This document shows, one piece after another, positions 9,648 through 56,487 of a DNA stretch of 64,000 bases. A program made the position numbers and the translations under genes. Source of the stretch: an uncultured Mycoplasma sp. (GTDB lineage Bacteria > Bacillota_I > Bacilli_A > RF39 > UBA660); assembly GCA_945947035.1 (NCBI GenBank), contig CAMEXD010000002.1, forward strand, positions 31,040-95,039, written 5' to 3'. Below the pieces are notes generated by a model. The model had not been told where the DNA came from and made no database searches. It was given only the letters and a program-made list of their open reading frames with translations. Position 1 is the first letter of the stretch; each line of letters opens with the position of its first letter.

Positions 9648-9670
9648 CCACTAAATAATATGTTATAGTT

Positions 9671-21102: not shown

Positions 21103-21919
21103 TTAAAACCCTCCTTAATATTATAAGTAAATATTTTTTTTGATAATTACGATATGCTTTATTTGTACTACAAGTTTGAAGTATAAGTATTTCATCATTA
21201 CTAGATAACTCTACATCACTATCATATATAGATCTATATTTTAATTTTTCTAGATGATTTAGGTAATCTTCTTCATTATCAAAATCTAGATTCATATAAG
21301 AAAAATCAATAGTTTCTACATAAACAGAAAACACTTCATAAACTTTTCTTGTAGTACTTGTTGTAAGTTCAACAATTTTATTCCTCTCGTAAAAATCTCT
21401 ATCATCAAATTCTTCTAAAACATTAAATGGTGCTTTAATGTTAGAAGAACCATGACCAAAAATAATTAATTTTTTGCTAGAGTCTATGTCTACTCTATAA
21501 TCTAGAAAAACAGCTCCAGCAATACTTCTATTACCATACAAATTATGATTTGTATAATAATCATTATCACTACTTTGAACAACTGGTATAGAAAAATTTG
21601 CATTTTCTAATTTTAATAAACCAACAATGTCCTCATTATTATATTTTTCTTTCAACTTATCTATAATTTTTTTATTACTAATTACATCATTTAAATCATT
21701 AATTACTATATTAGTCATTATTTCTTCATCAAAATCAATATTTTTATAATCATTATTTAGATATTTATTAATTAAATATAAAAGTATCAACAAAATAACT
21801 AATATAAAAATAAGTATTATAATTTTAAATATCTTTTTTTTCTTATATTCATCCATAAGCCCCACCACAGATTCATTTAAGTAATTAGTTATTCTAATCA
21901 TAATTATCTGTTTTGTCAA
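21089..21919 (-). CDS. Sortase (class B-like)
   Basis: N-terminal TM. Catalytic His in LIIFGHGSS, Cys in ILILQTCST, Arg in LIILRRV. The start codon is uncertain; MDEYKKKK is a possible start. Confidence 0.8.
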   Translation of the reverse strand: MTKQIIMIRITNYLNESVVGLMDEYKKKKIFKIIILIFILVILLILLYLINKYLNNDYKNIDFDEEIMTNIVINDLNDVISNKKIIDKLKEKYNNEDIVGLLKLENANFSIPVVQSSDNDYYTNHNLYGNRSIAGAVFLDYRVDIDSSKKLIIFGHGSSNIKAPFNVLEEFDDRDFYERNKIVELTTSTTRKVYEVFSVYVETIDFSYMNLDFDNEEDYLNHLEKLKYRSIYDSDVELSSNDEILILQTCSTNKAYRNYQKKYLLIILRRVLNEEI

Positions 21920-22126: not shown

Positions 22127-24376
22127 TTAACAATATTTATATTGTCCACAATATCTAACTCTATAAATTTCATAATTACCACTAGCTGATGTATAGCACC
22201 AACTATATTGTATAGATGATGTACTTTTTGGATCTGGATCATCAATTGGTATACTAGTACTACATCCGCTCCATGCATTCCATTTAGCACAACCACACAC
22301 TTTACCACTAGTAGTACCATCAGAACCATTAGAATTAGAATTACTATCATCATCTCCACCAATAATTATAGTGTTACCTCCACCAGAAGATGAAGAACCA
22401 CCACCACTACTAATAGAAGAATTTTTCTTAGCAATAGCATATAAAGTTATATTAGAAGATAAAGTTATTGAATCCCCTGCTTTATAAGAAGCAGTTGTTG
22501 CAGAAGAAGATGTATTCCAACCAAGTGCACTATAGCCACTTATAGCAGCAACAGAAGGAGCAGTAATATTACAAGACTTATTAGTACCAGAAGTAGTACA
22601 TGATAATGAAGTAGCTCCTATATTAGAAATACCTGTTGTAGTTTTAAATGTAGCAGTAAAGGTTTGTGATACAGAACCAGTTCCTGCAACAGTATGAGTG
22701 CAATTAATAGAATTACCAGCCCAATCAGTAATAGTCATCTTTTTAACATAAGTATATGAATTAATATCAAATGTAAAAGTTTGATTTCCATCAATTTTAG
22801 TTCCTACAACTGAAGATGATTTGTCTGTTCCATCTGGTTTAAGAACATAACGAACACCAGAAGTATCATCACTCCAAGTAAATTTAACAGATTGAGAAGT
22901 GGCAGTATTAGTTAAAGGAGTAATAGTACATCTTGGTTGAATTTTATCAACAATAACTTTAGATCCATCTGTTGTTTTAGTAATTTCTGCTCCAGTATTT
23001 CCTGCTTTATCTTTATAAGAACTTATCAAAAAACTTACTTCCCCTTCTGGTGTTGTATTAACTACTTTACCAACTGCTTTACAAGTTTGACCATCGCAAG
23101 TTGTTGTTACTGCACTACCACCAATTTTAACAGATGGTTTTGTTCCAAGTTGTTCATTCACTACAAATTCAAGTGTTATCTTATCATCTTTTTTTGCATA
23201 TGTTTTATATTGATTATTACTATATATTTTTACACTTGTTATTTTTGGTGCAGTAGTATCTTTAGAAGGTGTTGTTGGATTTGAGGGATTAGTTGAAGTT
23301 GATTTGTTGTTAACAGTAACATCTATTAAAACGCTAAAATTTCCATCTTCAGTCGTTCCCTTAACAATTGCTTTTCCTTTTCCTACTCCAGTTATCTTTC
23401 CTGAACTTGAAACTGTTGCAACCCCACTATTACTAGTTTGCCATTTAATATTTTTATTAGTTGCATTACTTGGTTCTATAGTAGTTTTTAATTGTTCACT
23501 ACTTCCAACTGTTAAAACTACCTTTGTCTTGTTTACTTTTAATCCTTTAACTGCAACCAAATCTGTTCCAACATTAACTGTTTTTGTAATTTCTTTACCA
23601 TCACTTGTAAAAGTTATAGTTGTAGTTCCCTTTTTTAATCCTACTAAATTACCATTATTATCTATTTTTACAATCTCAGTATCTGCTATTTTATACTGTA
23701 AATCATTAAAGCACTCGTCGTCATCACCTAAGTCTATATTTAATTTTATTGGTTTATCAATAACAGCAGTTAACTCATCACTATTAAATGATTCATCAGA
23801 TAATCTTCTACAAATTACTATTTCTTTTTCAACACCTGGAAGTTTTACATCTTCAAGTTGTCCTGATACTTCTAAAACAAATCTTCCTGTTGTTATTGGA
23901 ATTAATTCATTTGTAGCAGTTTTACCTTTTACATATCCTTTTGCTTTTACTTCAACAATACTATTATTTGACGTATCAAATTTATAAACAGCATTTTTTA
24001 AGTTTCCACTACCAGTTGCTTTAACTGTTACATTTTCTTTTTCACCAACATAAATAATATCTGGTGCTGTAAGTTTTATTTCTTTTAATGTTCCATTTGT
24101 TAAAACACAACCTCTAACTAATAAAACTATTAAAAGTAAAAGAATAAGAAATCCAATCAAACCATAAAATAACATTTTATTTTTATTTATTTCTTTTGGT
24201 TCTTCTTCATCAAATACTTCTTCTTCAAATTCTTCGCCATCACCATATTCTATTGTAGCATCGTTAAATTCATTTGTTTTTAAATCTTCATTATAGGAAA
24301 AATTTCCTTCATCTTCATATTCGTTATAATTATCATCATTTTTCTTGTTCTTTTTGTTAAACATATTACCAAACAC
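22127..24376 (-). CDS. Type II-anchored large surface protein: Big_2 Ig-like domain, Ig-like repeats, Listeria/Bacteroides-type repeat, Cys-rich C-terminal module
   Basis: Acidic N-terminus then TM MLFYGLIGFLILLLLIVLLV. Big_2-like LKVNKTKVVLTVGSSEQLKTTIEPSNATNKNIKWQTSNSGVATV. GYSALGWNTS...ITLYAIAKK repeat. The C-terminus has 6 Cys. The likely start is the GTG at 24376, 6 nt after GGGAGGG; the track uses a TTG that lies inside that SD. Confidence 0.8.
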   Translation of the reverse strand: MFGNMFNKKNKKNDDNYNEYEDEGNFSYNEDLKTNEFNDATIEYGDGEEFEEEVFDEEEPKEINKNKMLFYGLIGFLILLLLIVLLVRGCVLTNGTLKEIKLTAPDIIYVGEKENVTVKATGSGNLKNAVYKFDTSNNSIVEVKAKGYVKGKTATNELIPITTGRFVLEVSGQLEDVKLPGVEKEIVICRRLSDESFNSDELTAVIDKPIKLNIDLGDDDECFNDLQYKIADTEIVKIDNNGNLVGLKKGTTTITFTSDGKEITKTVNVGTDLVAVKGLKVNKTKVVLTVGSSEQLKTTIEPSNATNKNIKWQTSNSGVATVSSSGKITGVGKGKAIVKGTTEDGNFSVLIDVTVNNKSTSTNPSNPTTPSKDTTAPKITSVKIYSNNQYKTYAKKDDKITLEFVVNEQLGTKPSVKIGGSAVTTTCDGQTCKAVGKVVNTTPEGEVSFLISSYKDKAGNTGAEITKTTDGSKVIVDKIQPRCTITPLTNTATSQSVKFTWSDDTSGVRYVLKPDGTDKSSSVVGTKIDGNQTFTFDINSYTYVKKMTITDWAGNSINCTHTVAGTGSVSQTFTATFKTTTGISNIGATSLSCTTSGTNKSCNITAPSVAAISGYSALGWNTSSSATTASYKAGDSITLSSNITLYAIAKKNSSISSGGGSSSSGGGNTIIIGGDDDSNSNSNGSDGTTSGKVCGCAKWNAWSGCSTSIPIDDPDPKSTSSIQYSWCYTSASGNYEIYRVRYCGQYKYC

Positions 24377-24439
24377 AATAATCCCTCCCAATTATTATCT
24401 AAAACTAGTATATATTTTTTTAATTTTTTAGTCAAGGAA

Positions 24440-24470
24440 TAATTTAAAAAGTAGCATTTTTTTGCTACTT
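24440..24470 (-). terminator. Probable terminator after proS
   Basis: AAGTAGCA / TGCTACTT stem directly after the TAA stop. The U-tract is short. Confidence 0.5.
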
Positions 24471-25886
24471 TTAATATTGAATTCCCCAAATAACTAATTC
24501 TTTAGCAGGCTTGCCACAAACAACGCAACAATCATCAATTTTCTCATCATCTATAATACAACGTGATTTTATACCTTTTATCTCTTTCATTTTTTCTTCG
24601 CAGCAAGTATCTCCACACCACATTGCTTTAATAAATCCAGGTTGAGTATTAATTATTTTTTCTACTTCAGATAAATTATGCGCAACAAAAGTTAAATCAT
24701 CACGTCTTTTTTTAGCTTTTTCAAATAAATCATTTTGGATAATTTCAAGTAATTTATTAACTACTTCTACTATATCATTATCTATATCAACTTTAATTTT
24801 TTCATAATTATCACGTCTTGATAATGTTATTTTATTTTCTTTTAAATCTCTTTCTCCAACTTCAATTCTTAATGGAATACCATTTACTTCAGCTTCAGCA
24901 AATTTATATCCTGGAGTTTTTTCACTTTCATCTATTTCTACTCTAATACCAGAACATTTTAACTTATTATAAATTTCATATGCTTTGTCTTTAGCATTAC
25001 CAATTGGTATAACAACAACTTGAATTGGTGCAATTTTTGGAGGTAAAATAAGTCCATTATCATCCCCATGAACCATTATTAAGGCTCCAATCATACGAGT
25101 TGTTACTCCCCAAGATGTTTGATAAACATATTCATATTTATTTTCTCTATTTAAGAATTTAATATCATATGCTTTAGAAAATTTTTGTCCAAAATAGTGA
25201 CTTGTTCCAGATTGAAGAGCAATACCATTATACATAAGAGATTCTATAGTTAAGGTATATTCAGCTCCAGCAAATTTTTCTTTTTCAGTTTTTCTTCCTG
25301 TTATAACTGGAATTGCAAGATATTCCTCAAAGAAATTTTTATAAATGTCAAGAATCATTCTTGTTTCATTTTCTGCTTCTTCTTTGGTTTCATGAATTGT
25401 ATGACCTTCTTGCCATAAAAATTCTCTACTTCTTAAAAATGGTCTTGTTTCTTTTTCCCATCTAAGTACATTACACCATTGATTATATTTTAATGGCAAA
25501 TCTCTATATGATTTTACAATAGTACTATAATAATCACTAAATAATGTTTCGCTAGTTGGTCTTATACACATTCTTTCATCAAGTTTTTTACTTCCACCTT
25601 CAGTTACCCAAGCAACTTCTGGTGCAAAACCTTTTATTAAATCACTTTCTTTTTTCAAAAGATTTTCAGGAATAAGCATTGGCATACTTACATTTTTATG
25701 ACCAGTTTCTTTAAATTTTTTATCTAAAACTTGTTGCATATTTTCCCATATTGCATAACCATTTGGTTCTATAACTATACAACCTTTAGTATTAGAATAA
25801 CTTGCAAGATGAGACATTCTTACAACATCTGTATACCACTTTGCAAAATCTACATCACGAGATGTAATTGAATCATTTTTAATCAT
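24471..25886 (-). CDS. proS: Prolyl-tRNA synthetase (archaeal/eukaryote-like short type)
   Basis: N-terminus SRDVDFAKWYTDVV. Class II motifs. C-terminal zinc-like CGDTCCE...CCVCGK, ending in Y. Confidence 0.9.
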   Translation of the reverse strand: MIKNDSITSRDVDFAKWYTDVVRMSHLASYSNTKGCIVIEPNGYAIWENMQQVLDKKFKETGHKNVSMPMLIPENLLKKESDLIKGFAPEVAWVTEGGSKKLDERMCIRPTSETLFSDYYSTIVKSYRDLPLKYNQWCNVLRWEKETRPFLRSREFLWQEGHTIHETKEEAENETRMILDIYKNFFEEYLAIPVITGRKTEKEKFAGAEYTLTIESLMYNGIALQSGTSHYFGQKFSKAYDIKFLNRENKYEYVYQTSWGVTTRMIGALIMVHGDDNGLILPPKIAPIQVVVIPIGNAKDKAYEIYNKLKCSGIRVEIDESEKTPGYKFAEAEVNGIPLRIEVGERDLKENKITLSRRDNYEKIKVDIDNDIVEVVNKLLEIIQNDLFEKAKKRRDDLTFVAHNLSEVEKIINTQPGFIKAMWCGDTCCEEKMKEIKGIKSRCIIDDEKIDDCCVVCGKPAKELVIWGIQY

Positions 25887-25972
25887 AAATAACCACCTAT
25901 ATATATATTAACACAAAATTATTATAACTGACATATTTTTTATTAAAAAAGAACTACATAGTTTGTAATTCT

Positions 25973-27784
25973 TTATTTCATTTCTTTTCCTGCTTGTCTA
26001 AATCTTTCTTTATCATCAAGAATTTTTTTTCTAAGTCTAATCGCATCAGGAGTAAGTTCTACATATTCATCATCTTCAATAAATTCTAATGCTTCTTCTA
26101 AAGTGAATTTTTTTGGAGTGATAAGTGTTAATGCTTCATCTGAACCAGAAGCACGAGTATTAGTTAAATTTTTATTTTTACAAGGATTAACATTTAAATC
26201 ATTATCTCTATTATGAATACCTATAATCATTCCTTTATAAACTTCTGTTGCTGGTTCTATTATTAAAGTACCACGATCACTTAAATTGAATAAAGAAAAT
26301 GCCATTGCCTTTCCATCTTCCATAGAAACAAGTACACCATTTTTTCTTCTTCTTACTTCTCCAACGTATGGTTTATAGTTTTCATAACTTCTTACCATGA
26401 TACCTTCACCTTTAGTATTAGTAATAAAGTTAGAACGATATCCGATTAAACCTCTTGTTGGACAAGAAAATTCTAATTTTGTATAGCTTTCATCATTTGT
26501 TATTGAAAGAAGATTACCTTTTCTTTCATTTAAATCATTTATTATTGTTCCAGCATAATCGTTTGGACATGAAATAAGTACTCTTTCAAATGGTTCACAT
26601 TTTACTCCATCAATTTCTTTAAATAAAACAACTGGTTTTGATACTGAAAGTTCGTATCCTTCTCTTCTCATTTCTTCAAGCAAAATTGATAAATGAAGTT
26701 CACCACGACCAGATACTTTATACCCATCTGCTCCATTTAAACTTTCAACACGAAGTCCAACATTTGTTTCAAGTTCACGATCTAATCTTTCTTTAATATG
26801 ACGATTAGTTAAAAACTTACCTGAACGTCCTGCGAATGGACTAGAGTTTACTAAGAAATTCATTGACATAGTTGGTTCTTCTATTTCAATTGGTGGAAGT
26901 GGATCAATATTATTTAAATCACAAATTGTATCTCCAATTGATATATCAGAAACAGTTTGAACTGTAACAATTTCACCATAATAAGCTTCTTTTACTTCAC
27001 GACGTTCTATTCCTTCGTTAACAAAGATTTTTCCAACTCTTTGATTTTCAATTTTACCATCATTTTTAGATACAGCAACCATTGCGCCACTTTTTAATAC
27101 TCCTTTTGTTATTCTACCAACTCCAAGTCTTCCTAAATAATCATCATAAGACAAACTTGATATTTGAAGTTGTAAAGGATCATTTTCGCTTCCAGCATAT
27201 ACAGGAGTATGTTTTAAAATAGTTTCTAAAAGTGGCGTCATATCAGTTGAAGAATCATCTACTTCATATTTTGCTATACCATCTCTTGCTGTACCATAAA
27301 TAATAGGAAAATCTAGTTGTTTGTCATTAGCACCAAGTTCTACAAATAAATCAAATGTCATATTAACTACATCATCAATACGAGCATCTTTTTTATCAAT
27401 TTTGTTAATAAACAAAATAGGATTTAAATTTTGTTTTAAAGCTTGTTCTAGAACAAATCTAGTTTGTGGCATAACTCCTTCTTTACTATCAACAAGAAGA
27501 ATTACTGTATCAACAGTTTTTATAATACGTTCTACTTCTGAAGAAAAATCAGCATGTCCTGGAGTATCTACTATATTTATTTTATAATCCTTATATCTTA
27601 TTGAACAATTCTTGGAATAAATAGTAATTCCTCTTTCTCTTTCAAGATCATTACTATCCATAATTTGTGTCCCAACATTACTGGCATCACGAAAAGCCCC
27701 ATTTTGTTTAAGTAGTGCATCTACTAAAGTAGATTTACCAACATCGACGTGTGCAACAACCGCAATATTTATTATTTTATCCAT
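25973..27784 (-). CDS. typA: Translational GTPase TypA/BipA
   Basis: G motifs AHVDVGKSTL, DTPGHADF and NKIDK. EF-G-like domain order. Confidence 0.9.
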   Translation of the reverse strand: MDKIINIAVVAHVDVGKSTLVDALLKQNGAFRDASNVGTQIMDSNDLERERGITIYSKNCSIRYKDYKINIVDTPGHADFSSEVERIIKTVDTVILLVDSKEGVMPQTRFVLEQALKQNLNPILFINKIDKKDARIDDVVNMTFDLFVELGANDKQLDFPIIYGTARDGIAKYEVDDSSTDMTPLLETILKHTPVYAGSENDPLQLQISSLSYDDYLGRLGVGRITKGVLKSGAMVAVSKNDGKIENQRVGKIFVNEGIERREVKEAYYGEIVTVQTVSDISIGDTICDLNNIDPLPPIEIEEPTMSMNFLVNSSPFAGRSGKFLTNRHIKERLDRELETNVGLRVESLNGADGYKVSGRGELHLSILLEEMRREGYELSVSKPVVLFKEIDGVKCEPFERVLISCPNDYAGTIINDLNERKGNLLSITNDESYTKLEFSCPTRGLIGYRSNFITNTKGEGIMVRSYENYKPYVGEVRRRKNGVLVSMEDGKAMAFSLFNLSDRGTLIIEPATEVYKGMIIGIHNRDNDLNVNPCKNKNLTNTRASGSDEALTLITPKKFTLEEALEFIEDDEYVELTPDAIRLRKKILDDKERFRQAGKEMK

Positions 27785-27872
27785 ATTTTTCTACACCCTC
27801 TTTTTTTGAAAATCTCTAAAATTATACTACAAAATTAGACAAATTACAATAGGAATATGGCAAAAACTACTT

Positions 27873-29204
27873 TTAATTGTTACTTTTAATAGTTTCCAAA
27901 GCCAAATCAATAAGTTTAGGTAAATATTCAATCATAAATAATGGTACATTAAGTAAATTACCATCTAAGCTTAAATTTTTCATTGAAAGTCTTATTCTCA
28001 ACTTAGGATTATATTTTTCATTATATTTAGTTAAACTAATATTATTTATATTCTTTCCAGATTTAACTTCAATAGGTATAATTTCGTTTTTTGTTTGAAG
28101 AACATAATCAATTTCAAAGTTATCAAATGTATAATAAGAAATACAATTGCCATAAATATTTTTTAACATATTTAAAATATAATTTTCTGTTAATGATCCT
28201 TTATATTCGCCATATATATCATCTTTTGCTATTGCTATTTTGCTATCAATATTTGTTTTACTTCTTAATAGACCAACATCATTTAAATAAATTTTAAAAG
28301 ATGTTAAATCATGGTAAGCTGAAAGTGGAAGTTCAGGTTTAGTAACATTATTTATTTTTAATACTATATCAGCATCTTTTAACCAATTAATTGCATCTTC
28401 ATATTCTCTAGCTCTTGCGCCTTCTTTTATAACTTGATATAAAAATTTCTTATTATTTTTTGCAAGTTGAGATGGGATACTATTCCATACTAATGATATT
28501 TTATTACTTTCACTATTAGTAGTATGTTTTGAAAAATCATTTTCATATGATCTTATAATACTGTCCTGAAGTCTATTTACCTCTTCAATATCTTTATTTA
28601 ATACCCAACTATCAACAACTTCCGGCATACCACCAATTATAAAATAAGCCTTAAGTTTTTCTTCAAGCGGTACAAAAAAAAGATCAGGTATAGCTTCAAT
28701 TTTATTAATTGATGAAAGATATTCTAACAAATTACCACAATTATCTGCTTTTAAAAATTCTGTAAATGTCATAGGAGTCATATCTAAAAAATCAACTTTC
28801 CCAACAGGAAATCCACTTTTTGATAGTTTTATACCAAGTAAACTACCAGCACAAACAATATGATAACTACTAGCATTTTCACAGAAATATTTTAAACTAT
28901 TTAAGGCATTGGGACACTCTTGAATTTCATCAAAAAATATTAATGTTTTTTCTTCACTTATTTTTTTTCCACAATAAAGTAATAAATTTTCAATTATTCT
29001 TTTTGGATCTTTAGTGTATTCAAAAATATTATATAAATTTTCATCATTGTCAAAGTTAAAATAAGCAATTGTTTCATAATTTTCTTTACCAAATTCATTC
29101 AATATATAAGTTTTTCCAACTTGTCTTGCTCCCCTTAAAATTAAAGGTTTTCTATTTTTTCTTAATTTCCACTTCAAAAGTTCATCCATAATTTTTCTTT
29201 CCAT
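27873..29204 (-). CDS. AAA-family ATPase with DUF4143-like C-terminus
   Basis: Walker A GARQVGKTY, Walker B LIFFDEIQ. The start is moved to MERKIM (ATG at 29204, SD AGAGGTG). Confidence 0.75.
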   Translation of the reverse strand: MERKIMDELLKWKLRKNRKPLILRGARQVGKTYILNEFGKENYETIAYFNFDNDENLYNIFEYTKDPKRIIENLLLYCGKKISEEKTLIFFDEIQECPNALNSLKYFCENASSYHIVCAGSLLGIKLSKSGFPVGKVDFLDMTPMTFTEFLKADNCGNLLEYLSSINKIEAIPDLFFVPLEEKLKAYFIIGGMPEVVDSWVLNKDIEEVNRLQDSIIRSYENDFSKHTTNSESNKISLVWNSIPSQLAKNNKKFLYQVIKEGARAREYEDAINWLKDADIVLKINNVTKPELPLSAYHDLTSFKIYLNDVGLLRSKTNIDSKIAIAKDDIYGEYKGSLTENYILNMLKNIYGNCISYYTFDNFEIDYVLQTKNEIIPIEVKSGKNINNISLTKYNEKYNPKLRIRLSMKNLSLDGNLLNVPLFMIEYLPKLIDLALETIKSNN

Positions 29205-29250
29205 AAGCTCTTCACCTCTTGTTACTATTATACAATAAAAAATGGCGAAA

Positions 29251-29325
29251 ATCACACTTTTTTGCCATTTTTATTTGAAAAAATCACATTTTTTCAAGTT
29301 TTTTTTATAAAATTATCACATTTTA
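29251..29325. repeat. Three phased copies of ATCACA(C/T)TTTT (candidate operator array)
   Basis: Copies start at 29251, 29283 and 29315, exactly 32 bp apart. Each is embedded in an A-run/T-run inverted repeat, for example GAAAAAAT-CAC-ATTTTTTC. Confidence 0.5.
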
Positions 29326-30864
29326 GTCATAAATAATACTATTTAATGACTCTTTATAATAATTTATCTTATCTTTTAATTCACTATTTTCAGATTCTAA
29401 TTCATTTATTCTTTCTTCTAAATTGCTATTATTATAATAATTTTCTTCTAGTTCTTCTTGTAATTCATTAATTCTATTTTCATAATATTCTACATTTTCA
29501 TCATAGCGAATTTTATTTAAATTATTATCTAAAGTTTTCATATTTTCACCTGATGTTATTACTTTAACTTTAATTGTAGTTAAAACATAATAATTATGAA
29601 TATTTTTAGTTTTTAAATCAGTTAAAACCATATTATATAAATATTTTGAAGAAATACTATTTGTTACACTATTATCTACATAAATATTGTTATTTGACAT
29701 TTTTATTTCTACTTTATTAAATTTATCATAATAATACACTTCTACTTTAACTGTATCTTTTAAAGTATCATCAATTTCATAATCAGTATTAAAAGATGGA
29801 TAAAAAACAAGTTTATCATTCATTTTAAATGTCTTTTCTATTTTTTCTTCCTTAGCGATACTTGATACATTATTAGTAAAATTAGTATTTGCTATTTCAA
29901 TAGCACTAATACCTACTCCAATTCCAAATAAAACAAGAGAAGACAAAATAACAATTAATGATTTTTTAACATCAATTTTTTTATTAAAAATAAAATAATA
30001 AACCATGTAAAGAAATACTAAATTAAGAAATAATGATGAAATTATTACTAAAAATATTCCAAAATATGTTACACCACTAAAAAGTAAAATAATAGATATA
30101 ATAAGAAGCATTCCTAAAGTTACTAAAGTAATAACAAAAGGAATTGATACAAATAAAATAAATAGTTTTACAAAAAACATAAAAACACTACCTAAAATAT
30201 CTAAAAATTTAAATGATTTTTCATGTTTTATAACAACTTTTTCTTCTTTTTTTAAATTTTTTTCTTCTTTAACATTATCTACTACATCATTTTTATCTTC
30301 TACTTTTTCTATCTTTTCTATTTTTTCATATCTATCTAAATATCTTATTTTATAAATATAAACAAATATAATAACTGATAATATTATATAAATAATTTCA
30401 AGAAGAGCATTCCAAATATTGCATATTATTCCAGATGCTTTACCCAAATAGATAAAAATATTTTCTCCTAAATAATAAAGATAATCAACTATATTATGAA
30501 ATATTACTAAAGCAATTATTACAAGTAACATTTCTAATATGCATCCTAAAATATTTTTAAAAGTCATTTTCTTTAACATTTCATAACTTCTTTTTATTAA
30601 ATCTAATAAACTGTAAACCAAGTTGCTAATATTTCCTTTTTCTTTTTCTTTTGATGTAATTGTTTTAACATCATCATTAGTTAAATCATCTAAAGTACAT
30701 TTAAATATCTTTGATAATTCTATTAATTTATCCATTTCTGGATAAGTTTGGCCAGATTCCCATTTTGATACTGACTGTCTTGATACATCAAGCATATCTG
30801 CCAATTGTTCTTGGGAAAGTTTTTTTGCTTTTCTTAAAGTTTGTAATTTTTCACTAAACTTCAT
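29323..30864 (-). CDS. Membrane-bound XRE-family HTH regulator with an extracytoplasmic domain and a C-terminal coiled coil
   Basis: HTH LSQEQLADMLDVSRQSVSKWESGQTYP. Several TM helices. Coiled coil NRINELQEELEE...ERINELESENSELKDKI. The start is moved to MKFSEKL (ATG at 30864) after GAGGTG. Confidence 0.8.
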   Translation of the reverse strand: MKFSEKLQTLRKAKKLSQEQLADMLDVSRQSVSKWESGQTYPEMDKLIELSKIFKCTLDDLTNDDVKTITSKEKEKGNISNLVYSLLDLIKRSYEMLKKMTFKNILGCILEMLLVIIALVIFHNIVDYLYYLGENIFIYLGKASGIICNIWNALLEIIYIILSVIIFVYIYKIRYLDRYEKIEKIEKVEDKNDVVDNVKEEKNLKKEEKVVIKHEKSFKFLDILGSVFMFFVKLFILFVSIPFVITLVTLGMLLIISIILLFSGVTYFGIFLVIISSLFLNLVFLYMVYYFIFNKKIDVKKSLIVILSSLVLFGIGVGISAIEIANTNFTNNVSSIAKEEKIEKTFKMNDKLVFYPSFNTDYEIDDTLKDTVKVEVYYYDKFNKVEIKMSNNNIYVDNSVTNSISSKYLYNMVLTDLKTKNIHNYYVLTTIKVKVITSGENMKTLDNNLNKIRYDENVEYYENRINELQEELEENYYNNSNLEERINELESENSELKDKINYYKESLNSIIYD

Positions 30865-30888
30865 TTTTCTCACCTCAAAACCAATTTT

Positions 30889-30916
30889 ATTATATCACAC
30901 TTTTACATTCTACCAA
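30889..30916 (-). promoter_or_regulatory. Promoter of the XRE regulator, overlapped by the ATCACACTTTT motif
   Basis: TTGGTA, 16-nt spacer, TGaTATAAT on the minus strand. The 11-mer at 30894-30904 is identical to the one at 29251-29261. Confidence 0.5.
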
Positions 30917-31205
30917 TTTATAGTTGATTTTTTGTAAAGTTTGAGTTGCAATTTGAAATTTTCAACTAAATTTTTAAATTTTTTACTAGTTTTAAAGAAA
31001 AAATAAGAAAGAAAAATTTTTCCAAATTTTAGATATTTTTTTTATAAAAATTTTAAAAAAGCAATTGACTAGAAATAAATTTATGAAATATTTTTGATAT
31101 GAAATCATCTAAAATTGATGAAAAATATAGACTTTTAAAGGTTTTTATTATATAATTATATCGGTTGATTCTTTTATAAATATTTAAAAAAGGAGGAAAA
31201 TTATA

Positions 31206-32888
31206 ATGTTTAAGTTTAAACCAGATAAGACTTATGTCTTTGCGTTAGGTGGTTTAGGCGAAGTTGGTAAAAATATGTATTGTATAATGCATAACAATGA
31301 GATAATAATAATCGATGCTGGTGTTTTATTTCCAGATGAAGAACTACATGGCATTGATTATGTTTTACCTGATTTTGATTTTTTAAAGAAAAACGAAAAG
31401 AAGATTAAAACTTTAATAATTACTCATGGTCATGAAGATCACATTGGTGGTATTCCATTTTTATTACAAAATGTTCATATTCCATCAATCTTCGCACCAA
31501 ATCAAGCTTACGCATTAATTAAGAAAAAATTAGAAGAAAAAAATATTAACTATAATGGATTACGTGTTTATACAAGTAACGATAAGTTAAAATTTAGAAA
31601 TTTTGAGGTATCATTTTTTAGAACAACCCACTCTGTTCCAGATTCACATGGAATATATATTAAAACACCAAACGGAAATATTGTTCAAACTGGAGATTTT
31701 AAAATGGATTTAACACCAATTGGCCCAGTTGCAGATTTTCCTAAGATGGCTGAAATATCAAAAGAAGGTGTAACACTTCTTATGGCAGATTCAACTAATG
31801 CTTTGGATGAAGGATTTTCCCTATCTGAATCTAAGGTTGACGAAGCAGTTCATGAAGTTTTTGCAAAGCATACTAATAACAGATTAATTATTGCAACCTT
31901 TGCATCAAATATTTATAGATTAAAACATATTATTGAAACATCTAAAGAATATAATCGAAAAGTATGTATTTTTGGTAGAAGTATGGAAAATAATATCAAT
32001 ATTTCTATGGAAGGTGGATATATTGATGCAAAAGATGTTATTATATCACCTGAAGTTGCTAATACATTAAAGCCAAACGAAGTAGTTCTTTTATGTACTG
32101 GAACTCAAGGAGAACCTTTAGCAGCGCTTTCTCGTATTGCTGATGGAATTCATAAACAGATATCTCTAAGACCAGATGATGTTGTTATTTTTTCAAGTTC
32201 TGCTATACCAGGTAATGCCAATGCTATTGCAAGAACAATAAATAATCTTTATTTAAAAGGAGTAAAAGTTTATACAACATCTAATGAAAGAGAAATTCAC
32301 GCATCAGGTCATGCTATGAGTGATGAATTAAAATTAATGATAAGATTAATTAGACCAAAATATCTTATGCCTATTCATGGTGAATATAGAATGCTTAAAA
32401 AACATGCTAAATGGGGAATGGAATGTAATATTCCAAAAGAAAACACCTTTATACTAGATAATGGAGATATTCTAGAATTAGATAATGGAAATGTTAATCA
32501 TGTTGGATCTATAGATGTTAATGAATCATATGTTGATGGAAGTAGAATTGGTGAAGTATCAGGTGCTGTACTTAACGATAGAAAAATTATGGCTAATGAT
32601 GGTATATTAGTAATAATTGCTAATATAAATATGGAAAATAAAAAATTACTTACAAAACCAATGATTACAACTCGTGGATTTATTCTTATAAATGAAAATG
32701 AAGAATTGATAAATAAAATTGAAAAAGTATCTATAAAATCAATTAATAAAAGTTTTAAAAATCCAAAATATACTTATCAAGATATAAAACAAGAATTAAC
32801 TAAAGATGTTTCTAATTTTATTAAAATGGAAACAGGAAGAAAACCAATAGTTCTTCCAATAATATCTAATATAAAAACTAACCAATAA
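31206..32888 (+). CDS. rnj: Ribonuclease J
   Basis: Metallo-beta-lactamase motif THGHEDHIGG, beta-CASP region, and strong SD AAGGAGGA. Confidence 0.9.
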   Translation: MFKFKPDKTYVFALGGLGEVGKNMYCIMHNNEIIIIDAGVLFPDEELHGIDYVLPDFDFLKKNEKKIKTLIITHGHEDHIGGIPFLLQNVHIPSIFAPNQAYALIKKKLEEKNINYNGLRVYTSNDKLKFRNFEVSFFRTTHSVPDSHGIYIKTPNGNIVQTGDFKMDLTPIGPVADFPKMAEISKEGVTLLMADSTNALDEGFSLSESKVDEAVHEVFAKHTNNRLIIATFASNIYRLKHIIETSKEYNRKVCIFGRSMENNINISMEGGYIDAKDVIISPEVANTLKPNEVVLLCTGTQGEPLAALSRIADGIHKQISLRPDDVVIFSSSAIPGNANAIARTINNLYLKGVKVYTTSNEREIHASGHAMSDELKLMIRLIRPKYLMPIHGEYRMLKKHAKWGMECNIPKENTFILDNGDILELDNGNVNHVGSIDVNESYVDGSRIGEVSGAVLNDRKIMANDGILVIIANINMENKKLLTKPMITTRGFILINENEELINKIEKVSIKSINKSFKNPKYTYQDIKQELTKDVSNFIKMETGRKPIVLPIISNIKTNQ

Positions 32889-32902
32889 TTTTGGTTAGTT
32901 TT

Positions 32903-33409
32903 TTAGTCTTCTAAATAATTTTCTCCTTTATGGGGTTCTGTTTTTAGTAAATCTCTGTAATCTTGTTGTCTTAATACTTCATATGTTACTGTTGCAACGC
33001 AATTTGATAAATTAAGAGCTCTAACATCTTTTGTCATAGGTATTCTCATACAATTATTTAAATTATCTTTTAAAATTTCTTTTGGAATACCAGTTGATTC
33101 TTTACCAAAAATTAAATAAATATTTTCATCTTTATTACTATAATCAAATGATGTATGTGGCTTTTTACCATATCTTGTAAAATAATAAAAGGTTCCTTTA
33201 TTTTTACTTAAAAAATCTTCATATGATGGATAAACATAATATTTTAATTTATCGATATAATTAACTCCACATCTTTTAATAGTTTTATCATTAAGTAAAA
33301 AACCAAGTGGTTCAATTAAATGAAGTACTGCACCTGTTGCTACACAAGTACGCATAATATTTCCTGTATTTTGAGGTATTTCTGGTTCATATAAAACTAT
33401 ATTAATCAT
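32903..33409 (-). CDS. trmL: tRNA (cytidine/uridine-34 2'-O)-methyltransferase TrmL (SpoU family)
   Basis: LYEPEIPQNTGNIMRTC N-terminus and the SPOUT knot region LIFGKESTGIP. Confidence 0.85.
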   Translation of the reverse strand: MINIVLYEPEIPQNTGNIMRTCVATGAVLHLIEPLGFLLNDKTIKRCGVNYIDKLKYYVYPSYEDFLSKNKGTFYYFTRYGKKPHTSFDYSNKDENIYLIFGKESTGIPKEILKDNLNNCMRIPMTKDVRALNLSNCVATVTYEVLRQQDYRDLLKTEPHKGENYLED

Positions 33410-33908
33410 TTATATCATATCCTTCCAAAAATTCTTTTACTATTTCCATATTATAATTACTAGATATTGTTAAAAAATCAACCATTTTTCCATTATTAAA
33501 TATCGCAATTGTAGGATAATTAGTTATTTTTTTAATCAAATATTCATTTTTATATTTATTATATAATTTATTTAACAGATTATTTTCAACATTTCTATAT
33601 CCAAGATTAAGGTATAAAATATTATCTGTTAAATCTTGTTCCTTAATAAAGGTTGAAAAATTTTGCTCAAAATTTCTGCAAGATAATTCATAAGTTGTGC
33701 ACATATAAACTACAACAACTTCATTTTCTTTTAAGAAATTATCTAAATTATCATATTTTATTTCTTTTAAAGTATTAGTAATAACGGGTTCACCTAATTT
33801 TGCTTCATTATATTGCTTAATCCATGAAAAAAGATAAATACAAATTACAAAAGTAATTATAAATATACCTAAAAGTATTAAATAGTTTTTAATGGTTTTA
33901 TTTTTCAT
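33402..33908 (-). CDS. Membrane-anchored thioredoxin-fold-like protein without an obvious CxxC
   Basis: N-terminal TM, then the Trx-like pattern VVVYMCTTYELSCRNF...YPTIAIFNNGK. Confidence 0.5.
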   Translation of the reverse strand: MKNKTIKNYLILLGIFIITFVICIYLFSWIKQYNEAKLGEPVITNTLKEIKYDNLDNFLKENEVVVVYMCTTYELSCRNFEQNFSTFIKEQDLTDNILYLNLGYRNVENNLLNKLYNKYKNEYLIKKITNYPTIAIFNNGKMVDFLTISSNYNMEIVKEFLEGYDIND

Positions 33909-36514: not shown

Positions 36515-39433
36515 TTATGATAACCAACAAGCTGAATAAGTTTCACAGGTTGATGTATCACGACAAGTTGTTGTACAACTTTGATTATATCTTAAACAAC
36601 TACATGATGAACAACTCTTATAAGCACCACAATATTTAGTTGCATCTCTACAACAATATGGTGAGGATGGATCATCTTCATAACATTTTCCAGAAGTACA
36701 TACTGTTTTATAGCAACCATAGGCATTACATGTTTGTGAAGTACTTCCTGTTGAACTATTATAATAACTACCATATACCCAAGTTGAATTATATGAAGCA
36801 CATCCACAAGCAGCACAAGTATCATACTGAGCACAAGTTGTATCTCTACATGTTTCAGTACAACTTTGTTTATATGCCGAACAACTACAATTACTATTTC
36901 TTGATAAACTTAAAGATACACTTGAATAACCTGTATTACCATTAGCATCTTTTGCATGAACGTAATATGTTCCTGCGCTTGTTTTAGTAAATGATGCTGT
37001 TGTTGATGGTGTGCTTGAAATTGATGTCCAAGATGTTGGTGTTGCAGTCGAAGTTGTAATTGCATAACCTACTACTCCAGTATTATCAGCAATTGTTGCA
37101 TTTATTGTTGCACTTCCATTTCCTCCTGTTTTTGATAAAGTAACCGTTGGAGCTTCAGTATCAAGTCCTGTTACTGTTATAGAACATGATCCAACATTAT
37201 CTGCAGTATCTTTTACATATCCGGTATAAGAACCATTTACTGTAATATCTTTAGTATTTGTTGTACTATAGTTTGAATTATCAAATGAATATGGAGCATC
37301 AGCCAAATCAGTATCAGTTGATGTAATTGTTAAAGTCTTAATTGATGATTGTCCCTCAGGTGTTGCTGTAATCGTACAAGTTGGTGGAATTGTATCTTTT
37401 CCTACTAAGAAATAGGCACTAACATTACCAACATTATCTTTTACAAATATATAATAAGCATTTGATGATATGTATTCAACATTAGTAATGACGTTCTCTT
37501 CACTTGTACTAACCCAACCATCAGAATTAGCACTTGGAGTTGTTGAATCAAGTGAAACATAATAACCACTAAGTCCTGAACCTACATCACTAGCAGTATA
37601 GCTTAAATATTGAGTTCCTTCCTGATCAGTGTATGATGCTGAACTTATGACAGGAGAAGTTGTATCTATTTTAGAAACTGTTGTTGTACAACTACCAACA
37701 TTACCTAAATTATCTTTAACATAAGCAGTATAAGTACCATTTGCTGTTATATATTTTGCAACAACAGATGAATAATTAGTTCCATCAAATGAATATCCAT
37801 TAGGATCAATACCACTTGTTTCATCAGTAGCATTTACTGTAATGGTTTTTGTTGTTGTCCAAATATTTTCTTGAGATTGACTAATTGTACAACTTGGACT
37901 AGTTGTATCAAGTGTAATTGAATCAGCTCCTACACTATCATTGTCAAAATAAACATAAACCTCTTTAAGACCATCATTACTATCTAAAGTATAGTTTTTT
38001 GAAGTACTATAAGTTTCCCAATTAGAATTTCCACTACTACAATCAATATCTTTATTACTTGATAATGAAACACACATATTTTCTGCACCATCTACATTTA
38101 TAGTTAAAGTAACACTTGTGCTACTAGTATAACTATCTCCATTATTAACTAAAACAGCATTTTTTAATTTTGTTAAATTTGAAACAGTTAAAGTGCTTGA
38201 TTCTTCTGATGTTTCATTACCATTTCCACTATAATCTTTTACTATATTTCTTTTTGCTTTTAAAGTTGTTGTTCCATTTACATTTCTAGCAGTCAAACTA
38301 AAGGTATATTTAAAGCCATATCTATCTGTTAATTCTTCTTTTACTGGATTACTTATTTGAACAATATTTGAATCTGATAAAATAATATCACTTGCGGTTA
38401 CATCAGTATCAACCCAATCACCAGCATCACTGTCAACACAAGTTAAAACAAATTTAGCAGTTTCACCACTTGTTATATTATTAATATCAGGCCCTGTAAA
38501 AGTACAAACTGGAACACTAACATCAACATCTGTAACTTCAACTGTTGCAACATCACTAATATTACTATTACCATCTTTTACCCATACGTAATAAGTACCA
38601 TTTTCATAAATACTATCACTTGCATAACTTAAAGATGTACTTGTTTGCCAATTTTCTGTAAGTGTTGGAGTTTCATTTACATTTTTTATAATATAACCAG
38701 TTATACCAATATTATCTGTTGCTGTAACATAAATCTGCTTTCTAGTTCTTGTTATTCCATCAGTTGATGTAACACTAGTTATAATAGGTTTTTCTGTATC
38801 TTCTTCATAAGTTAAATTATCAACATTAACTTTAAAACCAAAAGTTCTATCTTTTATTGTTCCTGTTTGTGTATTACCATCTAGCTCATAATTTATATCA
38901 TTATCTTCATAATTTTCATCTATCCAAATTCTTAATCTATATTTTTGAGTGTTATTACCTGTATCTGTTGGAGTAATTGTTGTTGTATATAAAAGATATG
39001 AATTTGTATCATTTGGATACCTCATTAAATTACTAACTGAAGTTGGCATAACAATTTCATTGTCATCTTGATCTGTTAAATAAACTTTTATATATTTTTG
39101 ATCAATGTTATTACCATCTAATTCTTTTAAATAGATATTATAAGTAATTCCATAATTATAATCATTTTCTATATATATATTAAAGTCAAAATAATTGCTT
39201 TGTGTTTTTCCTTCTTCATCACTAATAAAAGAAGTATTAGTAATTGCAATTGCTTGACTTTCTTCAGTATATCTAAATACTAATCCCCTTAAATCTATTA
39301 TATTTTCCTTAGTACCAATAAAATTCGCACTAAAAAATGCAAACGACACACCTATTACTAGTAAAAATCCAATAAGTGCATAATAAAATAATCTAGATTT
39401 TTTTGTTTTTTTTAATTCCTTTTTATTTTTCAT
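36515..39433 (-). CDS. 972-aa secreted multi-Ig-like-repeat protein with a 127-aa C-terminal module containing 22 Cys
   Basis: N-terminus KKSRLFYYALIGFLLVIGVSFAFFSANF (TasA/SipW-type-like signal). At least five ~100-aa repeats delimited by D(T/V)xxPxCT. The C-terminus starts NSNCSCSAYKQSCTETCRD. Confidence 0.85.
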   Translation of the reverse strand: MKNKKELKKTKKSRLFYYALIGFLLVIGVSFAFFSANFIGTKENIIDLRGLVFRYTEESQAIAITNTSFISDEEGKTQSNYFDFNIYIENDYNYGITYNIYLKELDGNNIDQKYIKVYLTDQDDNEIVMPTSVSNLMRYPNDTNSYLLYTTTITPTDTGNNTQKYRLRIWIDENYEDNDINYELDGNTQTGTIKDRTFGFKVNVDNLTYEEDTEKPIITSVTSTDGITRTRKQIYVTATDNIGITGYIIKNVNETPTLTENWQTSTSLSYASDSIYENGTYYVWVKDGNSNISDVATVEVTDVDVSVPVCTFTGPDINNITSGETAKFVLTCVDSDAGDWVDTDVTASDIILSDSNIVQISNPVKEELTDRYGFKYTFSLTARNVNGTTTLKAKRNIVKDYSGNGNETSEESSTLTVSNLTKLKNAVLVNNGDSYTSSTSVTLTINVDGAENMCVSLSSNKDIDCSSGNSNWETYSTSKNYTLDSNDGLKEVYVYFDNDSVGADSITLDTTSPSCTISQSQENIWTTTKTITVNATDETSGIDPNGYSFDGTNYSSVVAKYITANGTYTAYVKDNLGNVGSCTTTVSKIDTTSPVISSASYTDQEGTQYLSYTASDVGSGLSGYYVSLDSTTPSANSDGWVSTSEENVITNVEYISSNAYYIFVKDNVGNVSAYFLVGKDTIPPTCTITATPEGQSSIKTLTITSTDTDLADAPYSFDNSNYSTTNTKDITVNGSYTGYVKDTADNVGSCSITVTGLDTEAPTVTLSKTGGNGSATINATIADNTGVVGYAITTSTATPTSWTSISSTPSTTASFTKTSAGTYYVHAKDANGNTGYSSVSLSLSRNSNCSCSAYKQSCTETCRDTTCAQYDTCAACGCASYNSTWVYGSYYNSSTGSTSQTCNAYGCYKTVCTSGKCYEDDPSSPYCCRDATKYCGAYKSCSSCSCLRYNQSCTTTCRDTSTCETYSACWLS

Positions 39434-39623: not shown

Positions 39624-39779
39624 ATGTACGGATACGGAGGATACGGAGGATGCGGCTGTGGTTATGGCTACGGTGGCGGAGGAGAATGGCTTTGGATTAT
39701 AATTGTAGTAATTATTGTAATTTGCCTATTTAATAATAGATGCGATTGTCATGATCACGATCGTAGAGACTGTCGCTAA
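39624..39779 (+). CDS. 51-aa mini-protein MYGYGGYGGCGCGYGYGGGGEWLWIIIVVIIVICLFNNRCDCHDHDRRDCR
   Basis: SD AAAGGAGAG 7 nt upstream of the ATG. A terminator follows immediately. Locally GC-rich codons in a very AT-rich genome argue for selection on the coding sequence. Below the ORF-track size cut-off. Confidence 0.65.
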   Translation: MYGYGGYGGCGCGYGYGGGGEWLWIIIVVIIVICLFNNRCDCHDHDRRDCR

Positions 39780-43331: not shown

Positions 43332-43922
43332 TTATACTCCACAAGAACTACATGATAAATTGTTAATATCAATCATATATAATCTTAATTTTTCTTTTAA
43401 ACTATCAATTTTAGAAGAAGTCCAATACTCTTCTGGTGTTATATCTTCTGTTATAACTGAAGTTTCATTATCGTGTCCAATAATTTCACCATTTAATATA
43501 AATGTAACATCCGGAACAAAAACTCTTTCATTTCCTTCTTCATCATATAACATATAATCACTTAAAAGAGATACAATTTTTTTATAAGTTTCAGTATTAT
43601 TTTTTCTATCTTCTAAAATATTAAAATAATAGATTTTTTCTATTCCTTCTTCTTTAGCCACCTCATTTAAATACTTAACATAAGCACAACACCAAGGACA
43701 TTCAGGAAATCCTAAATAAACAACTCCAGTTCCATTTTCAAGTATTCTAATTATTTCAGAACCAGTTCTATATACAAAAACATTATCTTCTTCTATACCA
43801 TATTCTTTAGCAAATTTTTTATTATCAGTTTCTTCTTTATTTAAGAAAAAATATAAACCTATTCCTACTAAAACTAGTAAAAGTACAAAACCTAATAAAA
43901 ACATTAAATTCTTTTTTTTCAT
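43332..43922 (-). CDS. Membrane-anchored exported thioredoxin-fold protein (CPWC)
   Basis: N-terminal TM, then VVYLGFPECPWCCAYVKYLNE. It resembles Bta-type bacteriocin-accessory thioredoxins. Confidence 0.65.
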   Translation of the reverse strand: MKKKNLMFLLGFVLLLVLVGIGLYFFLNKEETDNKKFAKEYGIEEDNVFVYRTGSEIIRILENGTGVVYLGFPECPWCCAYVKYLNEVAKEEGIEKIYYFNILEDRKNNTETYKKIVSLLSDYMLYDEEGNERVFVPDVTFILNGEIIGHDNETSVITEDITPEEYWTSSKIDSLKEKLRLYMIDINNLSCSSCGV

Positions 43923-55332: not shown

Positions 55333-56487
55333 TTAAAAATTAAACATAACCCACTCTGGTTTTACAAGTAATAGTAAACCAATTATAAGCATAAGTATTC
55401 CTCCAATTAATTTACTATACTTACTATATTTATTTGATATACCTGTAACTTTAAGTGTAAACATAGCTATTAAAAATACTATTAAATCATCAAGTAAGAA
55501 AAATAATATATAAACAAGTGTATACAAAAATGCAGTAAAGCCTGTAACATTATTAACTGCTAAAATACTAGAAAATAGTACTGGCAATCCTAAAGAACAA
55601 GCAAGTTCTACAAAATTGACACTTATAGCAAGTGTTATAACTCCAATAAGAGATATAATTAAACTTTTTTCTGTAGTAAATTTTTTTATTTTATAAAATG
55701 TTTTTTTACGATTTTCATTTTTTACAACGGTACAACCTGCTTCTTTTTGATTAAGATAACCTTTTAAATTAATTAATCCCGCAACTAATGCAAGTATAGC
55801 TATTATGCTTCTTACTACAATAGTTGATGTTATATTTACAACAATATTTAACCAAGACATCATGATAAGTAAATACATTAAAGCTGATGTTAGTAAAAAA
55901 GTAATTCCTATAATCCATCTTCTTTTTTTATCAGATATACCAATTAAAGAGCTAATTAATAAAATTAATACCCACATAGCACAAGGATTAAAACCATCAA
56001 CTAAACCTAAAACAATAGAAATAAGAACAAGTGAGGTATCTTTTACATTTATTTTGCCAAGAATAGGTATTACTTCTTCATTTTCATTGTTTTCTTTATT
56101 ATCATTATTATTTTCTTCATAGCTGATTTTTTCTAATCCTAATGCTTCTCTTATCATGTTTTCAATTTTTTCATTGTAAATTTCACTATAACCATAAACA
56201 TAAGAATCTCCAACAACAGTAAATGGAACACCCATTCCAGTTACATATAACTTTTGTTTATATGTATTCATTAAATCTTTATTTTCACTATTATTATAAA
56301 CTTCATATCTTTTTATTTCTAAATCAGGATATTTAACTTCCATTTCTTTTAAAAATTCTTTTTCTTTAGCGCAATGAGGACAACCTTCTCCATAGAAAAA
56401 ATGCATTGTTGCATCTTTTGCTTCTACTAAAGTGATTGATGTAAAAAACAAAATAAATAAAAATAAATATTTTATAATTTTTTTCAT
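55333..56487 (-). CDS. Exported thioredoxin/glutaredoxin-like domain (CPHC) fused to a CcdA/DsbD-like transmembrane electron-transfer domain
   Basis: Signal peptide, then FFYGEGCPHCAKEKEFL. TM cysteines in VDGFNPCAMWVL and VELACSLGLPVLF. Confidence 0.7.
   Translation of the reverse strand: MKKIIKYLFLFILFFTSITLVEAKDATMHFFYGEGCPHCAKEKEFLKEMEVKYPDLEIKRYEVYNNSENKDLMNTYKQKLYVTGMGVPFTVVGDSYVYGYSEIYNEKIENMIREALGLEKISYEENNNDNKENNENEEVIPILGKINVKDTSLVLISIVLGLVDGFNPCAMWVLILLISSLIGISDKKRRWIIGITFLLTSALMYLLIMMSWLNIVVNITSTIVVRSIIAILALVAGLINLKGYLNQKEAGCTVVKNENRKKTFYKIKKFTTEKSLIISLIGVITLAISVNFVELACSLGLPVLFSSILAVNNVTGFTAFLYTLVYILFFLLDDLIVFLIAMFTLKVTGISNKYSKYSKLIGGILMLIIGLLLLVKPEWVMFNF

Follow-up and report, generated by a model that had tools for sequence, protein, structure and literature searches.

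What does an unusually cysteine-dense stretch do at the very end of a large bacterial surface protein? The question is raised by the gene of a 972-amino-acid (aa) protein in a 64,000-nucleotide (nt) stretch of DNA from an uncultured Mycoplasma sp., referred to below as the window. The window covers C2:31040-95039 (contig C2 is CAMEXD010000002.1) of a genome assembly (G000; GCA_945947035.1) with 1.17 Mb, 24.7% GC and 42 contigs that is 71% complete. A preliminary description, made from the DNA letters, had drawn attention to the last 127 residues of the protein. The reading we favour, to which we give a probability of about one half, is that this module is a disulfide-locked, hypervariable distal piece of stalk proteins built from Ig/FN3 domains and of pilus proteins, that it serves binding or variation, and that it is diversified as a cassette.

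Architecture of the cysteine-rich tail

The gene and the parts of its tail are as follows.

36515..39433, minus strand: gene of the 972-aa surface protein, an open reading frame (ORF) with an N-terminal signal or transmembrane segment, an N-terminal domain, Ig/FN3-like repeats and a Cys-rich tail
36518..36898, minus strand: C-terminal module of 127 aa (aa 846-972) with 22 Cys, from the ORF translation and a Cys count
36809..36892, minus strand: flanking unit 1 (aa 848-875, 6 Cys), NCSCSAYKQSCTETCRDTTCAQYDTCAA, homologous to unit 2
36611..36808, minus strand: core (aa 876-941, 10 Cys), CGCASY...YCGAYKSC, between units 1 and 2
36635-36796, minus strand: hypervariable stretch of the core, aa 880-933
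36518..36610, minus strand: flanking unit 2 (aa 942-972, 6 Cys), SSCSCLRYNQSCTTTCRDTSTCETYSACWLS, with the terminal CWLS at 36518-36529

Translation and counting bear out the length of 127 aa and the 22 cysteines that the preliminary description had given. Cysteine makes up 17% of the module as against 1.16% of the genome's long ORFs (binomial P about 2e-19), in a composition of 31% Ser+Thr, 11% Tyr and about 0 His. The two units said to flank the core are indeed related to one another (Smith-Waterman score 96, shuffle mean 33, z=10.1, p<2e-4), and their duplication is visible in the DNA itself, with 78% identity across 51 nt. Unit 2 closes the protein with the pattern ...C-x-x-Y-x-x-C-[W/Y]-L-S-COOH. 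Spurious ORFs overlap the module in two other frames (36592..36834 on the minus strand and 36640..36945 on the plus strand), as had also been noticed; they arise because the codon mix of the module (TGT, TAT, TCA, AGT, ACT) leaves both frames open.

Copies of the module and cassette exchange

The distribution of the module was followed in the window's genome and 40 relatives, and a profile hidden Markov model (HMM), A1, was built from five true module copies. The genome itself holds a second copy, at the C-terminus of a 355-aa pilin-like protein (C18-355; gene at C18:18710-19774, N-terminus MKNNKGFAVTTVVY...), where the module occupies G000:C18:18710-19102 and is 93% identical to that of the 972-aa protein in amino acids and 93.6% in nucleotides. 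Between the two genes, 90% nt identity is confined to the last 478 nt.

A further copy was found in a sister strain (L001) on P0002 (759 aa), the syntenic orthologue of another surface protein encoded in the window, of 754 aa. The two proteins are 77% identical overall and their genes have the same neighbours: proS upstream, and on the downstream side the genes of a 255-aa and a 618-aa protein. P0002 ends in the module core only, which is 89% identical in amino acids and 90.7% in nucleotides to the tail of the window's 972-aa protein. The DNA of the L001 and window genes is 85% identical up to a Gly/Ser/Asp linker and again after the stop codon, and the two tails, which fill the stretch between these points, show no relation to each other. 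The L001 tail is a clean cassette replacement in a 754-type orthologue. In another genome of the panel, G005, the two core types occur side by side, type B in the 972-type gene and type A in the 355-type gene. More than one protein architecture makes use of the module. A blastn and tblastn search of the tail against the whole assembly for silent cassettes gave only the two full copies.

The preliminary description had proposed that the module was shared by a second surface protein. This holds for C18-355 and P0002 and does not hold for the protein it had named, the 754-aa protein of the window, whose relevant parts are listed here.

22127..24391, minus strand: gene of the 754-aa protein, with an N-terminal transmembrane segment, Big_2, HL_N-beta, Flg_new, the Gly/Ser/Asp linker and a 6-Cys tail
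22298..22411, minus strand: Gly/Ser/Asp-rich linker (aa 661-698) before the variable tail slot, where the DNA similarity of orthologues ends
22130..22297, minus strand: strain-specific tail of 56 aa and 6 Cys (CGCAKWNAWSGCS...YRVRYCGQYKYC)

BLASTP aligns 10 residues of this tail with the 972 module (E=0.022 for the single comparison), composition-preserving shuffles give z=1.3-1.9 with p=0.05-0.12, unit 2 against the end of the tail gives a non-significant z=-0.6, and hmmsearch with profile A1 and all filters off returns no match to the tail at E<=10. Homology of the two was rejected on these non-significant results, failure in an alignment significance test being a ground for refutation that the preliminary description had itself named. 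A search of 5.8 billion clusters found no relative of the 754 tail except itself. This tail is a 6-Cys sequence of another kind, strain-specific, that occupies the same hypervariable slot. In 754-aa orthologues of other species the same linker is followed by unrelated Cys-rich tails (one with 12 Cys in G005, others in G004 and G003) or by no tail at all (G006, G001).

A core that varies within a constant cysteine framework

Among four close type-A alleles the ratio of nonsynonymous to synonymous substitution rates (dN/dS) is 0.26-0.52, from which it follows that the module is coding and under purifying selection. The variation is unevenly spread. P0001, with 969 aa, and P0003, with 974 aa, are orthologues of the 972-aa protein, and between the window's protein and P0003 identity is 75% in the protein body, 76% in unit 1, 39% in the variable core and 96% in unit 2, which is the best-conserved part of the whole protein in this comparison.

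Across copies the module cysteines are either invariant or changed in compensating pairs. Type-B cores have lost the second Cys of a 'CC' pair and gained one elsewhere, leaving the total at 22 as in type A; P0005 has lost exactly six cysteines and P0002 has kept 14. The joint loss in P0005 suggests a possible bond between the third Cys of unit 1 and the fourth of unit 2, with the four missing core cysteines paired to one another. Each of the 16 distinct tails examined in the genus has an even number of cysteines (6, 8, 10, 12, 14, 16, 18, 20 or 22), mostly not a multiple of 4, and His is nearly lacking from them. The 8 cysteines outside the tail, in the body of the 972-aa protein, form four within-domain pairs (310/332, 454/465, 515/582, 686/750). 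The even counts, the compensated moves and the body pairs together point to complete pairing, in which all cysteines of the module would be engaged in intramolecular disulfides.

Known families and distribution

No Pfam or NCBIfam family matches the module at E<=1, either alone or inside the whole 972-aa protein, none matches six other tails of the class at E<=10, and profile A1 against PDB sequences returned only noise (E about 0.5). The impression that this is not a described domain was thus confirmed. Two candidate identities were tried and did not fit: a metallothionein-like domain (no HMM match; 11% Tyr and about 0 His in the module) and a SCIFF/ranthipeptide or lanthipeptide precursor (no precursor family match; SPASM genes on other contigs).

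The module is also very rare. Besides the second copy in the genome, the HMM search recommended in the preliminary description gave 3 matches among 1.84 billion cluster representatives, each of them scored with profile A1 (P0004, P0001 and P0005), and a search of 5.8 billion clusters with the module gave 3 as well (P0001, P0002 and P0003). Within the genome panel it is present in only 2 species of one genus (G000, G005), and a search of genome contigs matched a single GTDB species, 'MAG: bacterium isolate SUG1322'. The module is real and undescribed and, judged by these searches, restricted to one small lineage of bacteria of gut type.

A wider class of tails in the genus

When the genus was searched with the Ig-like region that precedes the tail, many proteins of the same layout were recovered: a pilin-like (KGFTLVE...) or G-x-S-[FY]-A-[FY] N-terminus, Ig-like repeats, and then a Cys-rich tail that differs from protein to protein. 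Four of these in the window's genome end in C[WY]LS (972, C18-355, C18-376 and C15-372), with more in G005, G004 and G001. Tails of G006 end in GW[IKD]L, and C[WY]LS is missing from many members of the class, among them P0002, the window's 754-aa protein and those of G003 and G006. Unit 2 shows significant relatedness to the ends of several otherwise divergent tails (C18-376, z=5.6; G001-525, z=4.6; G004-992, z=2.9; C15-372, z=2.5). The C18-376 tail matched only its own protein in the 5.8 billion clusters. Outside the genus such proteins are rare and some have Cys-rich ends; in one from another genus (L072, G083:C2) the homologue of the Ig-like repeats ends in a C-terminal transmembrane anchor and a basic tail, with no Cys-rich tail.

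Several tails bear a likeness, at the level of motifs only, to the thrombospondin type-1 repeat (TSR; TSP_1, PF00090), with W-x-x-W-[ST]...C...C...R-x-R and about 6 Cys. Instances are WNAWSGCS...YRVRYC in the window's 754 tail, WSAWSTTACNAGPNC...YQTRTR in G003 and WSSW...YRTRR in C3-259; the 972 module itself differs in having no WxxW/RxR pattern. A TSR identity for these tails has no support from PF00090: hmmscan of the tails gave no match at E<=10, searches of PDB sequences were empty, and the profile, run in six frames across the 8 genomes of the genus, produced one irrelevant match (E=3). A very remote relation to Trp/Arg-ladder modules of the TSR kind, or convergence on them, is conceivable for some tail types. 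TSR-like tails were also seen on pilin-like or 754-type proteins at G000:C3:28287-29066 (minus strand) and at L029 and L046 (both G003), with WSSW..C..C...YRTRR, WSAWSTTACNAGPNCKTTTGYQTRTRS and CSWSAWTTTACSGNNCQTRTVYRTR as examples, none of which is matched by the PF00090 profile.

Three tandem paralogues on contig C15 of the window's genome (L004:6396-8129, 8217-10007 and 10095-11876; G000:C15) join a type IV pilin N_methyl N-terminus and a linker rich in Cys with a pretoxin-HINT domain (PF07591, E about 1e-18). In these fusions the 'VHN' of the HINT domain is followed by a Cys-containing peptide of only 23-26 aa.

Carriers, export and possible folding helpers

The features that bear on export and on thiol chemistry are the following.

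39320..39400, minus strand: Lys-rich N-terminal segment and hydrophobic helix of the 972-aa protein, ending GVSFAFFSANF (from the sequence, by eye)
G000 C5:60262, C1:25943, C13:26441, C16:13512 and C13:12388: SipW-like signal peptidase genes (TIGR02228)
55333..56487, minus strand: exported CPHC glutaredoxin-like domain fused to a multi-transmembrane domain with FNPC (weak glutaredoxin matches)
43332..43922, minus strand: membrane-anchored protein of thioredoxin fold with CPWC and a weak likeness to PedC/BrcD (TIGR01295, E=1.7e-5, under the cut-off)
33402..33908, minus strand: membrane-anchored DUF6568/PedC-like thioredoxin-fold protein (PF20207, E=8.6e-26)

For C18-355, AlphaFold2 predicted a long N-terminal helix (residues 8-60) followed by two confident beta-sandwiches, with a predicted local distance difference test score (pLDDT) of 86-94, that match the Ig/FN3 tandems of SiiE, the lambda tail tip and fibronectin. 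Neighbouring paralogues on C15 match N_methyl (PF07963, E 2e-5 to 4e-7), whereas C18-355, which begins KGFAVTT and lacks Glu5, and a 364-aa ORF on C15 have no N_methyl match at E<=0.01. A prepilin peptidase is encoded in the genome.

The N-terminus of the 972-aa protein looks, by eye, like a signal peptide of the SipW type (TasA class). Its GVSFAFFS was recognised in the same way; the signal-class HMM TIGR04088 of NCBIfam gave no match, Pfam and NCBIfam detected no TasA/camelysin domain in the protein, and a class III signal peptide or N_methyl motif (G|F-x-x-x-E) is absent from it, with no N_methyl match. N-termini of the form G[ST][SY][FY]A[FYI] are common to many paralogues, which make up a large exported-protein family, and this genome of about 1 Mb has five archaeal-type (SipW-like, TIGR02228) signal peptidase genes above the cut-off. 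At the other end, the expressions LPxT[GAS], NPxT[GN] and [SP]PxTG have zero matches in the 972-aa and 754-aa proteins, and neither has a C-terminal transmembrane segment, both ending polar and Cys-rich, in agreement with the preliminary description.

Of the thiol proteins, the DUF6568/PedC-like one is encoded three genes downstream of the 972-aa gene, a position kept in relatives. We consider it possible that this protein and the CPHC and CPWC proteins are candidate disulfide-folding helpers of the tails.

Near the start of the 972-aa gene, inside its opening 15 codons, lie A8 and A7 homopolymers (ATGAAAAATAAAAAGGAATTAAAAAAAACAAAAAAATCT, window 39398-39413), a possible site of slipped-strand phase variation. 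Divergent from this gene is a small ORF (window 39624-39779, plus strand), and at the same relative position in a relative's contig a 47-aa gene is called (L005:9640-9783).

Downstream of the 754-aa gene two genes (window 19246-21919, minus strand) form with it a trio that is syntenic in relatives. The first encodes a membrane protein of 276 aa that shows a sortase-like '...LILQTCS' motif but has no Pfam Sortase match, and the second a 618-aa protein whose ending, NPPYTG, a hydrophobic segment and KLVKNN, has the look of a sorting signal. Between the thrS block and the proS/754-aa gene the window (24391-32903) and the sister strain (L001:2527-9909) differ in content; in the latter, RNase J, a helix-turn-helix protein and BipA are directly adjacent.

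Discussion

We propose that the module works as a small scaffold with a changing face. Two homologous 6-Cys 'clasp' units would hold the 10-Cys core, the middle ~54 residues of which change fast while the Cys framework and the last unit are held constant. Export would proceed by two routes, through the SipW-like signal peptide of the 972-aa protein or through the type IV pilin-like N-terminus of its 355-aa paralogue, which would present the module in the way a 'modular pilin' presents a grafted one. After export all cysteines would form intramolecular disulfides, about 11 for the 22 of the module, perhaps aided by the exported CPHC and CPWC thioredoxin-fold proteins, to give a compact, protease-resistant knob whose variable loops could bind an external ligand, evade recognition, or both. 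Recombination among paralogues and strains would swap the whole tail or the core alone and so create strain-specific tips. Of all this the sequences show the anatomy, the distribution, the purifying selection, the even Cys counts and the replacement of the cassette, whereas disulfide bonds, a place at the surface or tip and a role in binding or variation are inferred. The preliminary description had regarded the module as the sole candidate for C-terminal targeting, anchoring or binding. It is the only recognisable C-terminal element, and an anchoring or sorting role in particular found no support; a folded, disulfide-paired and fast-diversifying distal module fits the evidence better.

Several points weigh against this proposal. 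Structure prediction, also recommended at the outset, was run with AlphaFold2 on the tail alignment and gave no usable tail model (pLDDT 32), and in the model of the 355-aa protein the tail stands at a pLDDT of about 25. With values of 25-32 the fold is not shown, disorder is possible, and a structural fold search of the tail is not meaningful. The tails with even Cys counts share ancestry in part, which lowers their independence, and among crudely predicted exported proteins the genome has no general bias to even counts (0.40 even vs 0.43 for cytoplasmic proteins). A canonical disulfide-generating partner is missing too, as neither VKOR nor DsbB turned up in the assembly, which is 71% complete. 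The 972-aa protein, finally, may either be released by SipW-type cleavage or keep its N-terminal anchor.

A bolder form of the proposal, which we put forward tentatively and regard as rather doubtful, is that the tails constitute a cassette-based surface-variation system of monoderms with genomes of about 1 Mb, in which a clasped scaffold presents a gene-converted core. The core would then move between pilin-type, SipW-type and transmembrane-anchored proteins, and the system would be, with the same reserve, a Gram-positive analogue of the antigenic variation of the pilin D-region, built on a new disulfide-rich fold.

Among the alternatives, the one that survives best, unlikely as we take it to be, sees in the tail an intermolecular cross-linker whose disulfides polymerise or tether surface proteins that are otherwise anchorless, in the manner of the C-terminal cystine-knot (CTCK) of mucins and von Willebrand factor, of Cys-rich spore-coat proteins or of keratin-associated proteins. 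It accounts for a module at the extreme C-terminus of proteins that have no LPxTG signal or C-terminal transmembrane segment and that would be left with no anchor at all if SipW-type cleavage took off the N-terminal helix. Several proteins of one cell carry compatible tails, and a composition of 17% Cys, 31% Ser+Thr and 11% Tyr resembles that of cross-linking matrix proteins. Intermolecular links, however, would tolerate or even favour odd numbers of cysteines, and the even counts in 16/16 tails together with the compensated moves fit intramolecular pairing. The hypervariability of the core is also hard to square with a conserved surface for self-recognition.

The low pLDDT of 25-32 and the extreme turnover of sequence between species would also be expected of a partly disordered, low-complexity tail rich in Cys, Ser, Thr and Tyr that drifts fast and does little. 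We consider this improbable: dN/dS lies below 0.55, Cys columns are invariant and their parity is kept, unit 2 is 96% conserved, and the spacing within the duplicated 6-Cys unit has been preserved.

A little less probable again is a metal-binding cluster of the metallothionein or zinc-knuckle kind, with Zn, Cu or Fe-S coordinated by the C-x-C, CC and C-x3-C motifs. C-x-C and CC motifs are plentiful, and the window contains cysteine desulfurase and thiol-redox genes. On the other hand His is nearly absent, Cys counts of 6, 10, 14, 18 and 22 are not multiples of 4, the predicted location is extracytoplasmic and no metal-binding family matches; metallothioneins, moreover, do not typically have as much as 11% Tyr.

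The conserved ending suggests yet another possibility, to which we give slightly less credence than to metal binding, namely that the terminal C-[W/Y]-L-S is a CaaX-like processing or sorting tag, read by a membrane protease or transferase, and the Cys-rich region a mere spacer. Four divergent tails of this genome close with C[WY]LS, as do further tails of G001, G004 and G005, the terminal unit is the most conserved one, and the genome has one CPBP/Rce1-like protease gene. That gene (on C22) is, however, unlinked to any tail-bearing gene, many tails of the class lack the motif, and the conservation of about 30 residues including four to six cysteines goes beyond what a tag needs. We also know of no bacterial system that prenylates the cysteines of exported proteins. 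Thioether cross-links of the lanthionine or sactionine type, made by a radical-SAM/SPASM or Lan-type enzyme, are very improbable, for although the tail has 31% Ser+Thr and 17% Cys and the genome encodes three SPASM-domain proteins, their genes (C20, C19, C4) are not close to any of the tail-bearing genes on C2, C18 and C15, the radical-SAM gene that adjoins the pilin cluster of C15 belongs to the MiaB/RimO type (UPF0004+Radical_SAM), no SCIFF or other precursor family of ribosomally synthesised and post-translationally modified peptides matches, and the even-Cys rule is not predicted.

Returning to the proposed disulfide-locked distal module, a close parallel to it is found in the type IVa pilins, whose D-region is a hypervariable, C-terminal segment of about 20-30 residues bounded by a disulfide of 2 Cys and, in Neisseria, is varied through cassettes by the pilE/pilS system. 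In both cases the Cys-closed C-terminal segment varies more than any other part of the protein, and recombination exchanges it for sequence from other copies of the gene. The module differs in its size (22 Cys, 127 residues), has no sequence similarity to the D-region, and is accompanied by no silent cassettes in the assembly. With the TasA/SipW class the 972-aa protein shares an N-terminus that ends, by eye, in G-x-S-F-A-F-F-S, and five SipW-type peptidases are encoded; the remainder of the protein differs in consisting of Ig/FN3-like repeats and the Cys tail. The CTCK domains of mucins and von Willebrand factor and the Cys-rich spore-surface proteins (PMC7333573) likewise close a large extracellular protein with a Cys-dense segment, but none matches the module in sequence and their Cys spacing differs. 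The presentation of grafted binding modules by modular pilins is well established, as in PilB and PilC of Streptococcus sanguinis, which carry a vWA and a lectin module respectively (PMC8179133). C18-355, C18-376 and C15-372 are like these in that non-pilin modules follow a pilin-like helix; the module described here differs in having no known fold or family, and the 972-aa protein in having a SipW-like N-terminus. On this reading the tails are of a known kind, that of modular adhesins and pilins whose C-terminal regions are variable and bounded by Cys, in a variant not described before.

Because the module occurs in only a few species of one genus, the finding has limited practical reach. If our reading is correct, it would add a new class of disulfide-rich domain to bacterial adhesins, and it would be unusual evidence of extensive extracytoplasmic disulfide chemistry in an organism whose assembly, 71% complete, yielded neither DsbB nor VKOR. 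It would also mean that uncultured low-GC bacteria with tiny genomes devote a sizeable share of their surface proteome to strain-specific, disulfide-rich tips which, mounted on pili and stalks and shuffled between genes, would decide adhesion or evasion.

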